Sequence record: OR062946.1
Length of the DNA stretch: 64,000 nt
Source of the DNA: Escherichia phage 310Ecol104PP
Strand: one strand, 5' to 3'
Part shown: one piece after another, positions 11,781 to 25,609 of the stretch
Numbering within the stretch: the stretch's first letter is position 1
How the letters are laid out: the number at the start of each line of letters is the position of its first letter
The notes under the pieces: generated by a model
Seen by the model: only the letters and a program-made list of their open reading frames with translations
Database searches by the model: none
Told to the model about the DNA's origin: nothing
Program-made: the position numbers and the translations under genes

Positions 11781-12318
11781 TTACTATTTCCAAAAGTTTA
11801 TTATTTTTAAGGTAATTAGCCTTTTCTAGGACTTCAGAAGCATATTTAGAACCTGCTTTAACATTCCATCCCGAATTATAAGAGGATATTGCTTTTCTTA
11901 TATCGCCCTTATGTATATTTAACCAATAAGAAAGTTCAATGTACGCCCAGGAAGCTGAATTGGACCGTTTATTCAACATTCTTTTTATTTCAGCATCGGT
12001 CATATTATAACCAAGTTCCTTAACTCTTGCTCGCATAGTAGGCAAATAATTTTGGAACATTCCGTAGGCGTGATGCTTTGGTTTAGATTTTAAATTAACT
12101 CCGCCAGAGCTTTCTTGCCATAAAATAGCAGCCATTATATGACCTAATCCGCTCTTGTGGATATTTTTGTGTGTTTTATATTTTCCATCCTTAGAAAATT
12201 GTTCCCCGAATTGATACGCGTAACGCATGTTATCGAGTTGGACATTACTGAAAGTATGCTCGGAGCTATGTGCCATCATTGAAATGGCCAATAGACCAGC
12301 GAGTAGTGCTTTTCTCAT
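11773..12318 (-). CDS. periplasmic lytic transglycosylase-like (SLT domain) protein
   Basis: Signal peptide MRKALLAGLLAISMMAHS, then AILWQESSGG ... YGMFQ and SYNSG resembling SLT catalytic motifs. Confidence 0.55.
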   Translation of the reverse strand: MRKALLAGLLAISMMAHSSEHTFSNVQLDNMRYAYQFGEQFSKDGKYKTHKNIHKSGLGHIMAAILWQESSGGVNLKSKPKHHAYGMFQNYLPTMRARVKELGYNMTDAEIKRMLNKRSNSASWAYIELSYWLNIHKGDIRKAISSYNSGWNVKAGSKYASEVLEKANYLKNNKLLEIVND

Positions 12319-12325
12319 GCTTACC

Positions 12326-12787
12326 TCATTGAGTTTTAATTACTGCTTTAGAAGCCTTTCCTGGTAAACGACGACTGTTGATAATTGCCATCCTACATTG
12401 AAGTGACGGGTCTTTGAATTTCGCATTAGGTTTACAAACTGTAAATCCAAGCCAAAGATTTCCATCTGTGATTTCTAAACGTCCAGGACGATATTCAACC
12501 CCATCAATAAAATCCTCGTCAATGTCAGGACGCGGAGGCATACTCAGGAATTCATTAACTTCTAAAACATGGTCTTTTATTTTATGGAATAATTCAAAAA
12601 CATATGTCTCATCAATCTCCCGTTGAATTGCGCGATCAAGAAGATGCTGAGAATATTTTAGATGAAACGATGAGACCCCTGCTGCTTTTGATGCCTCACG
12701 AATCTCATTGTTAATTTGACGAAACTCCGACTCAAAGTGACGACGAAGCTTATTTCGACGGATAAAAACTTCTGTATTGATAGTCAT
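12326..12787 (-). CDS. regB: RegB site-specific endoribonuclease
   Basis: 153 aa starting MTINTEVFIRRNKLRRHFESEF, recognised as T4 RegB. Confidence 0.9.
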   Translation of the reverse strand: MTINTEVFIRRNKLRRHFESEFRQINNEIREASKAAGVSSFHLKYSQHLLDRAIQREIDETYVFELFHKIKDHVLEVNEFLSMPPRPDIDEDFIDGVEYRPGRLEITDGNLWLGFTVCKPNAKFKDPSLQCRMAIINSRRLPGKASKAVIKTQ

Positions 12788-12812
12788 GTTATTCTCCTCT
12801 TAACTGATAGAA

Positions 12813-12845
12813 AAATTATACCACAGTCAAGAGGAAAAGTAAACA
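12813..12845 (-). promoter_or_regulatory. T4-type early promoter upstream of regB (minus strand)
   Basis: gtaaac at about 12839-12844 and attatacc near 12815. Confidence 0.5.
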
Positions 12846-12846
12846 G

Positions 12847-13125
12847 TTATTCTTTAAATCTAATCAATTTATTCATAGACTTTGAAACTTCTGCATGAAC
12901 CTCATGTAAGTTTTTAAGCTGTTCAAGACGCTGTTCATAGTAAGCAATTTCATCTTCTTCGAGACAGTCCTGTGAATCTTCTTTAAGATAACGTGCATAG
13001 TCCTGAAAAGCTTTACGGACTACTTCCTGGAAGTCATCAAGACTTTGAATTTTCTTAGGAGCGGCAGATACACGACGAGGTGCAGTATAATACTCATAAC
13101 CAAACCCTGCGCTTAATTGAGCCAT
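12847..13125 (-). CDS. small hypothetical protein (92 aa)
   Basis: ATG at 13123-13125 overlapping stop of upstream gene. Confidence 0.45.
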
Positions 13126-13391
13126 TAGTATTTTTCCTCTGGTTGGAACACAGCACGGCAAGCCCACATACTTGCTTCTTTGAGTTTCGTTTTAGCAATA
13201 GTTAACTGATCGAGGCTTTCGGCGTAATTCTTCGCGAGTTCATCATCTTCACAGCTATCAAATGCTTCCCAAAATTCATCGTATAAAGCGTCAAAGATAA
13301 GTCCTAAACGAACTTCAGCGTCTTTGATAGCATTCACTTTACCGATTTTCTCTTCAGTATGCGGCTTATAACCCTTAATATCTTCAATCAT
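13125..13391 (-). CDS. small acidic protein (88 aa) at a position compatible with T4 vs.4 (Acb2); identity unverified
   Basis: Synteny only (second ORF after regB); sequence not independently recognised. Confidence 0.4.
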
Positions 13392-13605
13392 ATTTTACTT
13401 CCTCACCAGTACCTAAATCATATTCAACTAAACGAATAGGTTCATGAATGCCATATCCCTGAACAGAAATTTCTGTCGTAGGATAAATTCCATCAATATC
13501 ACCCATATTCCATGCTTCATTAAATTGCTGTTCGCCTGAATTACTAAACCATTCGGCGAAAGCATTTAGCACATCTTCAGAACCTTCAATAATTATCTTT
13601 GCCAT
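13384..13605 (-). CDS. small hypothetical protein (73 aa)
   Basis: ORF in the post-regB array. Confidence 0.4.
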   Translation of the reverse strand: MAKIIIEGSEDVLNAFAEWFSNSGEQQFNEAWNMGDIDGIYPTTEISVQGYGIHEPIRLVEYDLGTGEEVKYD

Positions 13606-13967
13606 TACAGACTCTCGGTAAAGGTACGAGCGATAACGTCGCGCTGCTGTTCCGGAGTCAGAGAGTTAAAGCGAACTGCATAACCGGATACACGGATGGT
13701 CAGCTGCGGATATTTTTCCGGATGCTTAACTGCATCTTCCAGAGTTTCACGACGCAGAACGTTTACGTTCAGGTGTTGACCACCTTCAATTTTAACTGTA
13801 GGTTGTGTTTCAATTTCAATTTCACGGGCATGTAAACCGTAGAAAATTTCTGGGTCTACAAAAGAGTCCTCTTTAAAGGTTTTAGAGACAATAATTCGTG
13901 CTTGAATACCGTCTTCAAAATAAATAGTACCTTTATGTGTGCCTTCAAGAATTTGATATGCTTTCAT
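13605..13967 (-). CDS. autonomous glycyl radical cofactor (GrcA/YfiD-like)
   Basis: C-terminal half ([60 protein letters not shown]) matches E. coli GrcA as I recall it, including the RVSGY glycyl-radical motif; host-like GC-rich codons. Confidence 0.9.
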
Positions 13968-13974
13968 ATAAACC

Positions 13975-14304
13975 TCAATTAGAAAATAAATTTATCCAAG
14001 ATTGTTCTTTAATTAAAAATGGCTCAGAATCATATGCCATTAAACTCTGTGTGATTAGTCCTTTAAAAGGCCCATCAATAAATTCCATGGTAAAATATGG
14101 AATTTTATTCATTAGCCGTGCATTAGGAGCAGTACATAAAACTCTGCATCCTTTGAATACACCTTTTTGTAATTTGTATTGCTTGGGATAAAATTCGCTC
14201 AAAATGTTGTTATTTGCCAAAATTTCAAAATGATTCACCAATTTATTTTTAATAGTTTTTGGCGAAAAATAAAGATATTCGAAAAGCTGTGTGTCTGTCA
14301 TCAT
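13975..14304 (-). CDS. hypothetical protein (about 109 aa)
   Basis: ATG at 14302-14304 overlapping stop of upstream gene. Confidence 0.4.
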
Positions 14305-14840
14305 TGCATTCCGATTACGAAAAACTGCGGACGAGTAATACCACCAATGCAACATTTACTATTACAGCAGTAGTGTACAGTGTCAATATGGACGCTATAA
14401 ATCTTATCCATATCAGGAGATTTGACAGGCTCATCGATTATATACAAAATTCGCGAAAGCGATAAACCTCTGAACTTACTTCCTTTATTACCAATAAAAC
14501 TGCGCACAGAATCAGTAAATAAACGAAAACGTATATCATCATTAGAATAACGCGAAAATTCCTTTTTAATGTTATTTGCAGAAATTTTAGCGTAAGCTGA
14601 AGTATTAGAAAGAACAATAACTGTTCCGCCATCATACAGCCAATTAGCAGCAAAGTTAGTCACAGCAATTGATTTACCGGATTGACGTCCACCATCTATA
14701 CGAAGTGTGCAGTACTGTTTAAGTAATTCTTCAAATGGCGGGATATATTCGTTTTTACAAATTTCTTCTACTCTAGCATCAGAATGGTGTGTAAAAGCAT
14801 TCATCAGGGATAGATACGGGCCAGTTAAAAATGTTCTCAT
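14301..14840 (-). CDS. small P-loop protein (about 179 aa)
   Basis: Walker A-like GGRQSGKS; ATG at 14838-14840 (MRTFLTGPY). Confidence 0.45.
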   Translation of the reverse strand: MRTFLTGPYLSLMNAFTHHSDARVEEICKNEYIPPFEELLKQYCTLRIDGGRQSGKSIAVTNFAANWLYDGGTVIVLSNTSAYAKISANNIKKEFSRYSNDDIRFRLFTDSVRSFIGNKGSKFRGLSLSRILYIIDEPVKSPDMDKIYSVHIDTVHYCCNSKCCIGGITRPQFFVIGMQ

Positions 14841-14981
14841 TTTATTCTCTCTAAATTTGGGCCATTCCATGGCGCATGAATTGTCCATTTCTGTATTTAC
14901 CCATTACCGCACTCAGGCTCGACCTTATTACAGGTTGGCGGGAATCCCTTATAGAATCATAAGGTCCAGGTTGTTCCCATA

Positions 14982-15455
14982 TTATTTGAATGATTTGACG
15001 TACTGAATAGAACCTTTACTATTCACAAAGGCAATTTTACCATTTTTGTTATACATGGTAGCAGTACGTTGATAACCATAAGTTTGTTTACCAGATTGAT
15101 AACCAACTAATGCAAAATTATCTTCACCCATTTTATTCTGCTTAGCGCGAATGCGTTCATGGCCATGTGCCATAAGAACCTTAGCATCACCCGTTGCAAT
15201 GGATCTACGAGTTTTTTCATCTTCAACTGTATTAACAAAGTCGTCAAATGAATCAAATTTAGCATGAGATTTATTATACAGTTTTCCATCTACTGCATAA
15301 TTATATCCTTGTACATCCATCTCAACTTCTGTACCGTCATCCAATACAGCAGTGATTTTCTGTCCTTTTTTAAATTTCAAAAGATCAGTAAAAGATTCAG
15401 CAATAATTTGAGAATTAATAGCTGCTTCAGTAATAAATTCTTGATATGTTTTCAT
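14982..15455 (-). CDS. internal protein candidate with capsid targeting sequence (157 aa)
   Basis: N-terminus MKTYQEFITEA matches the T4 internal-protein CTS (MKTYQEFIAEA-type); sits at the T4 ipII/ipIII position next to e. Confidence 0.65.
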   Translation of the reverse strand: MKTYQEFITEAAINSQIIAESFTDLLKFKKGQKITAVLDDGTEVEMDVQGYNYAVDGKLYNKSHAKFDSFDDFVNTVEDEKTRRSIATGDAKVLMAHGHERIRAKQNKMGEDNFALVGYQSGKQTYGYQRTATMYNKNGKIAFVNSKGSIQYVKSFK

Positions 15456-15471
15456 GTGTATCCTTTAATTT

Positions 15472-15789
15472 TTATTCTTTAGGGAAGTTTTTAGAATATG
15501 CATCATAAAGCTTATTTCCAATACGGCGGAAAACTCTAGCCGCAAAACGATTTTCTGGGTTTTTAATCATGATTTGCATCATATAAGTACCCGCGTCAGA
15601 AAGAGCTTCTTCATAGTACCCGTTAATTTCTTTAAGAGTCCTACGTTTACCACCAGGACCATCAACAGTGATTTTCCATTTACCTGTAGAAGTGCGACTT
15701 GGCGGCTCAACTTGTTCAATCCAGATATAACCACCTTCTACACGTTGTCCTGCAGCAGATTCTGCAATAAATTCTTTATACGTTTTCAT
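15472..15789 (-). CDS. internal protein candidate with capsid targeting sequence (105 aa)
   Basis: N-terminus MKTYKEFIAES; adjacent to the other CTS gene and to e. Confidence 0.65.
   Translation of the reverse strand: MKTYKEFIAESAAGQRVEGGYIWIEQVEPPSRTSTGKWKITVDGPGGKRRTLKEINGYYEEALSDAGTYMMQIMIKNPENRFAARVFRRIGNKLYDAYSKNFPKE

Positions 15790-24912: not shown

Positions 24913-25609
<697 letters not shown>

Follow-up and report, generated by a model that had tools for sequence, protein, structure and literature searches.

Two small ORFs of 88 and 92 aa lie on the minus strand beside regB in Escherichia phage 310Ecol104PP (OR062946.1), as read from the ORF list and the raw sequence of a 64-kb window, by which we mean the whole stretch of DNA analysed. 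Their place is that of vs.3 and vs.4 in T4, and they raise the question of which of them, if either, encodes an Acb2-type sponge for immune second messengers, and what the other one encodes. T4 Vs.4 acts as a cGAMP sponge, a hexamer that binds three cGAMP and antagonises type II CBASS (PMC10449767), and the studies of Jenson et al. 2023 and Huiting et al. 2023 on Vs.4/Acb2 are summarised in PMC10449767 and PMC10312549. The original prediction cited T4 Vs.4 as reported to be Acb2, and the literature confirms that the two belong to the same family (PMC10449767).

Gene order and coding status of the locus

The 88-aa ORF runs from 13391 to 13125 and the 92-aa ORF from 13125 to 12847, both on the minus strand and both from ATG to TAA. 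The gene for RegB follows directly downstream of vs.3 in the direction of transcription, and the gene order vs.6, vs.5, vs.4, vs.3, regB, vs.1, vs is the one annotated in T4 and RB14. The original prediction had placed small ORFs beside regB at the T4 vs.3/vs.4 position, and it was right in this respect, since its coordinates are exact and the order matches both T4 and RB14. The features of the locus are as follows.

12326..12787, minus strand: regB endoribonuclease, from its match to Pfam REGB_T4 (1.4e-68)
12815..12843, minus strand: promoter-like TTTACT-17-TATAAT with an upstream TG in the vs.3-regB spacer, from a consensus scan
12847..13125, minus strand: vs.3/tadIV-1, 92 aa, long form with R77H, from the 9WIW match, identity to T4 and RB14, and conserved residues
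13125..13391, minus strand: vs.4/acb2, 88 aa, RB14-type allele, from 7UQ2, Pfam PF24729, AlphaFold2/Foldseek and conserved residues
13136..13139, minus strand: Shine-Dalgarno-like GAGG within the end of vs.4, 10 nt upstream of the vs.3 ATG, read from the sequence
13401..13404, minus strand: Shine-Dalgarno-like GAGG, 9 nt upstream of the vs.4 ATG, read from the sequence

The DNA from 12300 to 13650 shares 98.3% identity with phage teqdroes and 98.1% with RB14, and is matched by 681 phage records, nearly all from T4-like phages that infect enterobacteria. Together with the gene order shared with T4 and RB14, this DNA identity indicates that the phage is a Tequatrovirus and that the two ORFs are orthologues of T4 vs.4 and vs.3. 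Codon differences in vs.4 are entirely synonymous against RB14 (10 synonymous, 0 non-synonymous) and mostly so against T4 (15 and 4), and vs.3 differs from its T4 counterpart by 7 synonymous and 4 non-synonymous codons. Among phage records, 1237 contain a homologue of vs.4 and 724 one of vs.3. Because of these codon-difference counts and the many phage homologues, vs.4 and vs.3 can be regarded as real coding genes under purifying selection rather than chance ORFs. Scans of Vs.4 and Vs.3 with PADLOC and NCBIfam returned nothing meaningful, the one Cas11f match being at chance level (E 0.004).

An in-frame, GTG-started version of the vs.3 ORF, extending to 13167 and encoding 106 aa, was set aside, since the 92-aa ATG form is annotated in T4, T2 and RB14; it is also disfavoured by the length of 92 aa given in the TadIV-1 paper and by the GAGG 10 nt upstream of the ATG. 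The overlapping plus-strand ORFs of 41 and 60 aa were without support and were likewise rejected.

The stop codon of vs.4 and the start codon of vs.3 share a single base, 13125 (TAATG at 13123-13127), and no terminator-like element was found between the two genes on the coding strand. Their common strand, the one-base overlap and the lack of such an element suggest that vs.4 and vs.3 are likely to be co-expressed, through co-transcription and translational coupling. The same one-base overlap is annotated in T4, RB14, T2, WFK, FB, Entb_45, APCEc01 and RB69, and the pair is kept across five genera of Tevenvirinae, namely Tequatrovirus (T4, T2, RB14), Mosigvirus (WFK, APCEc01, RB69), Dhakavirus (FB), Kanagawavirus (Entb_45) and Gaprivervirus (CJ20, in an equivalent arrangement). 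Outside Tevenvirinae, no support was obtained for a Vs.3-like partner after acb2 in ZCKP1, A73, leE and RB16. The ORFs that follow acb2 in these four phages align among themselves with a mean column identity of 36% (18-26% to the first) and are absent from the listed Vs.3 matches, and thus look unrelated to Vs.3 from their mutual alignment and the hit list.

The promoter-like site at 12815..12843, which has an extended -10, marks the 3′ boundary of the vs.4-vs.3 unit, with the regB ribosome-binding site coming next, and may function as a promoter, judging from its agreement with the consensus. Between vs.3 and regB, the spacer has 100% identity to its counterparts in T4 and RB14, and within it the RegB target motif GGAG forms part of the regB ribosome-binding site, AAGAGGAGAA (12788-12800). 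At the other end of the unit, vs.5 (13384-13605, minus strand) encodes 73 aa as in RB14 and overlaps the start of vs.4 by 8 nt (13384-13391), whereas in T4 the annotated vs.5 is 58 aa long and is separated from vs.4 by a gap of 36 nt.

Several other genes of the neighbourhood could be described. The product of vs.6 (13605-13967, minus strand) is a GrcA/YfiD-like autonomous glycyl-radical cofactor of 120 aa (Pfam Gly_radical, 2.2e-18). That of vs.8 (14301-14888, minus strand) contains a Walker-A-like GGRQSGKS and weakly matches a PHROG for the ATPase part of the terminase large subunit (7e-6); the listed start of vs.8 overlaps vs.7, and translation probably begins some 18 codons further in. Two minus-strand ORFs that lie between vs.8 and the lysozyme gene e (14982-15455 and 15472-15789) start with MKTYQEFITE and MKTYKEFIAE, respectively, and in this they are similar to the N-termini that target T4 internal proteins to the capsid. 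The counterpart of the 14982-15455 ORF is annotated as Ip4 in RB14, and T4 has denV, ipII and ipIII in this place. No homologue of denV (endonuclease V), which in T4 is located between vs.8 and ipII, was found anywhere in the 64-kb window in a tblastn search with T4 DenV, and RB14 and T2 also lack denV at this locus.

Identity of the two ORFs

The original prediction had offered either the 88-aa or the 92-aa ORF as the equivalent of Acb2. Its first option stands: the best match of the 88-aa protein among PDB sequences is 7UQ2 ('Vs.4'), a crystal structure of T4 Vs.4 with cGAMP, which it covers over the full length with 84 of 88 residues identical (E 1.7e-53), and in Pfam it falls into PF24729, the Acb2/Tad1 hairpin family (Acb2_Tad1_hairpin), at 8.2e-20, scoring 71.2 bits where the cut-off is 27. 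Its identity reaches 95% with T4 Vs.4 and is complete (100%) with RB14 Vs.4. PaMx33 Acb2 ('p26'; 8IXZ, 8H2J) was matched weakly over residues 4-85 (E about 0.05), so that the similarity to both T4 Vs.4 and PaMx33 Acb2 for which the original prediction called a search is present in the 88-aa ORF.

The predicted structure agrees with this assignment. In a single-sequence AlphaFold2 model, made for the monomer only as were all our models, the 88-aa protein forms two long helices at residues 10-45 and 50-81 (pLDDT 87, pTM 0.70). Searching the PDB with Foldseek, three chains of 7UQ2 were the only matches below E 0.001 (E 2e-9, TM 0.74), followed by PaMx33 Acb2 (8H2X/8H2J, TM 0.69-0.70). The rmsd of the monomer model to 7UQ2 is 6 Å, and the kinked conformation of the hexamer is not reproduced. 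The hexameric helical fold that had been anticipated is thus borne out as far as the helical hairpin, which retrieves 7UQ2 and 8H2X/8H2J; the prediction was confined to the monomer.

Residues known to matter for ligand binding are also in place. PaMx33 Acb2 requires Y11 and K26 to bind dinucleotides (PMC10312549), and T4 Acb2 no longer binds them when it carries the Y8A mutation, while its Phe82 stacks on the dinucleotide in the pocket (PMC12657218). PaMx33 Y11 and K26 align with Y8 and K23 of the 88-aa protein, whose dinucleotide pocket (Y8, K23, F82) is intact, and an alignment of 13 family members, drawn from seven genera plus PaMx33, contains seven invariant residues (G7, Y8, I16, K23, M75, R79, P84) that are all found in it. 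PaMx33 Acb2 additionally binds cyclic trinucleotides via R67/T74, whereas T4 Acb2, with D61/T68, binds cyclic dinucleotides (CDNs) and not cA3, and its D61R mutant is also without cA3 binding (PMC10312549). The 88-aa protein carries D61 and T68 at the PaMx33 R67/T74 positions, which is the T4 configuration and not the pairing of Arg and Thr that defines the trinucleotide-binding subclass. Having D61/T68 as in T4 Acb2, the Acb2 of 310Ecol104PP is therefore expected to lack cyclic trinucleotide binding. Its four differences from T4 Vs.4 (L44F, N46S, C50D, F52L) fall between residues 44 and 52 at the tip of the hairpin, where the family alignment is hypervariable, and at least 60 phage records carry the identical allele, RB14, RB3, RB5-10, RB18 and wV7 among them. 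On the strength of its sequence and of the modelled fold, the 88-aa ORF can be assigned as vs.4, encoding Acb2.

The second option of the original prediction did not hold, and the 92-aa ORF belongs to a different family. Its only strong match among PDB sequences is 9WIW (E 1.2e-37), the TadIV-1 of UPEC07 deposited under the molecule name 'Endoribonuclease', and it also matches phrog_2037 (1.2e-39). Identities are 96% to T4 Vs.3, 99% to RB14 Vs.3 and 74% to the UPEC07 protein of the crystal structure, and searches for Pfam Acb2 (at E<0.1) and for Acb2 in the PDB gave no match. T4 vs.3 has been found necessary and sufficient to block type IV Thoeris and was renamed TadIV-1 (PMC13243611, Nat Commun 2026). 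The T4 protein, of 92 aa, is a two-helix homodimer in which a disordered N-terminal loop forms the binding pocket; it sequesters the TIR-made signal N7-cADPR without degrading it, with a KD of about 216 nM, and is non-enzymatic in that intact N7-cADPR is released on denaturation (PMC13243611). Residues R17, R18 and K24 of T4 TadIV-1 matter for binding, and mutation of a basic patch including H74 impaired the UPEC07 protein (PMC13243611). R17, R18, K24/K25, K48, E49 and H74 are all present in the 92-aa protein.

Length is a further point of identity. Long TadIV-1 homologues (about 90 aa; >80 aa) are active and short ones (about 70 aa) are inactive (PMC13243611), and the N-terminus of the 92-aa protein aligns with the long forms of T4, CJ20, WFK and UPEC07, unlike the short ones of FB, Entb_45, APCEc01 and RB69. 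In the AlphaFold2 model, residues 1-28 are without secondary structure and are followed by helices at 29-50 and 57-91, with a mean pLDDT of 69.5 and values below 50 for most of residues 1-19. Foldseek retrieved no matches to this low-confidence model from a PDB copy reaching to 2026-04-08, days before the 9WIW paper. Four substitutions separate the 92-aa protein from T4 Vs.3 (V21A, N38K, T64E, R77H), of which R77H (CGT to CAT) occurs in none of the 724 phage records with a Vs.3 homologue, where the best identity is 98.9%. Taken together, these comparisons identify the 92-aa ORF as vs.3, encoding the long form of TadIV-1 and not Acb2.

Two other readings of the 92-aa ORF were weighed against this one. 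It could be the Acb2 sponge in place of its neighbour, or both ORFs could be Acb2 paralogues that arose by tandem duplication; they are adjacent, both products are two-helix proteins of about 90 aa, and pairwise BLASTP finds a short match between them at the hairpin turn (9/19 identical, E 0.035). Nevertheless, these 19 residues sit at the acidic tip of Acb2, a hypervariable stretch without conservation across the family, the 92-aa ORF has neither a Pfam Acb2 match at E<0.1 nor an Acb2 match in the PDB, and a profile-profile comparison by hhalign of 13 Acb2 with 8 TadIV-1 sequences gives a probability of 0.3% (E 0.21). TadIV-1 is moreover a dimer with another architecture and binding mode (PMC13243611). 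Neither BLASTP nor hhalign provided evidence of common ancestry of Vs.3 and Vs.4, and we rejected tandem paralogy on the hhalign result and the restriction of the BLASTP match to the non-conserved tip; the reading as a whole, exchange of roles included, appears extremely unlikely. Alternatively, the 92-aa ORF could be an endoribonuclease related to RegB, as it is labelled in many GenBank/RefSeq records ('endoribonuclease', 'endoribonuclease RegB domain-containing protein') and in the molecule name of 9WIW. This can be practically dismissed, because Pfam REGB_T4 matches the true regB alone (12326-12787, 1.4e-68) and not the 92-aa ORF, and because the paper of the 9WIW depositors describes the protein as a non-enzymatic sponge (PMC13243611). 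The endoribonuclease labels of vs.3 appear to have been carried over in annotation from the adjacent regB. Records also label vs.3 as 'pyrimidine dimer DNA glycosylase', a label that is unsupported.

Predicted sponge functions and their integrity

With the 88-aa ORF assigned to Acb2 and the 92-aa ORF to TadIV-1, it is very probable that the locus represents the conserved vs.4-vs.3 pair of T4-like phages and encodes two counter-defence sponges for immune second messengers. From the identity of 95% to 7UQ2, two-helix hairpins of Acb2 would be expected to assemble into an interlocked hexamer, and the hexamer could bind three CDNs (3′,3′-cGAMP and related molecules) in pockets formed by Y8, K23 and F82 of paired protomers. 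The CDNs would be captured and not degraded, so that CBASS effectors would stay inactive. TadIV-1, as a two-helix dimer, could capture N7-cADPR with its flexible N-terminal loop (R17, R18, K24), and the caspase-like effector of type IV Thoeris would then not be activated. We infer the oligomeric state, ligand binding and defence inhibition of both proteins by analogy with the published ones, to which they are 95-96% identical.

Whether these functions persist in 310Ecol104PP depends on the integrity of the two genes. One or both could have decayed, leaving the phage without protection from CBASS or type IV Thoeris; there is a precedent in T2, whose Acb2 has lost G7/Y8, an alteration of the N-terminus that probably disrupts the cyclic-dinucleotide binding site (Panoptes paper, PMC12657218), and TadIV-1 of 310Ecol104PP has the private R77H near a functionally important basic patch. 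However, its Acb2 retains an intact T4-type N-terminus and every invariant residue, and vs.4 differs from the RB14 gene by 10 synonymous and 0 non-synonymous codons. In TadIV-1, R17, R18 and K24 are intact and the histidine that replaces arginine is itself potentially basic, making decay very unlikely on balance. R77H lies one helical turn from H74 in the basic patch, and owing to this proximity it could reduce TadIV-1 activity; its effect is probably neutral. It is also conceivable, if even harder to credit, that the RB14-type Acb2 allele (F44/S46/D50/L52) or R77H reflects an adaptation in which ligands are bound or how tightly. If this were true, 310Ecol104PP would differ from T4 in the signalling defences that it evades or triggers, for example through a weaker capture of the Panoptes decoy 2′,3′-c-di-AMP with CBASS signals still being bound.

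Being intact, Acb2 should be inhibitory to CBASS. It should also set off the OptSE decoy system of Panoptes as T4 Acb2 does, which for 310Ecol104PP is an expectation by analogy. The window also encodes Acb1 (57B), an anti-CBASS enzyme that degrades cyclic oligonucleotides, at 24916-25371 on the minus strand, with 99% identity to the T4 protein over 152 aa. Judged by homology, 310Ecol104PP is equipped with three known tools against nucleotide signalling, Acb1, Acb2 and TadIV-1. This combination predicts a phage that evades cGAMP-type CBASS and type IV Thoeris and is sensitive to Panoptes, a prediction that could help in the choice of phage and host. T2 encodes a functional TadIV-1 and yet stays sensitive to type IV Thoeris (PMC13243611), thus the presence of tadIV-1 does not guarantee a Thoeris-evasion phenotype. 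The Acb2 and TadIV-1 families are already known, and the locus contains no new biology. What is gained is annotation, as the two genes are 'hypothetical protein' or wrongly labelled in most T4-like genomes and can confidently be renamed acb2 and tadIV-1.

Comparison with known systems

The closest known counterpart of the 88-aa protein is T4 Vs.4 (7UQ2), which it resembles in position, length (88 aa), sequence (95% identity), the Y8/K23/F82 pocket, the D61/T68 configuration and the predicted hairpin. With PaMx33 Acb2 (8H2J, 8H2X, 8IXZ) it shares the PF24729 family, the hairpin fold at a TM of about 0.7, and the equivalence of Y11/K26 with Y8/K23. Nevertheless, the two are only about 21-24% identical, and PaMx33 has R67/T74 where 310Ecol104PP has D61/T68. 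T2 Acb2 (NC_054931, 6594-6851, minus strand) lies at the same locus and equals the T4 allele from K9 on, but its N-terminus is rewritten to MKILRD-KPH without G7/Y8, in contrast to the intact T4-type N-terminus of the 310Ecol104PP copy.

For the 92-aa protein, T4 Vs.3/TadIV-1 is alike in position, in being the 92-aa long form, in sequence (96% identity) and in the residues R17/R18/K24/K48/E49/H74, while the UPEC07 TadIV-1 (9WIW) has an N-terminal loop nine residues longer than that of 310Ecol104PP and T4.
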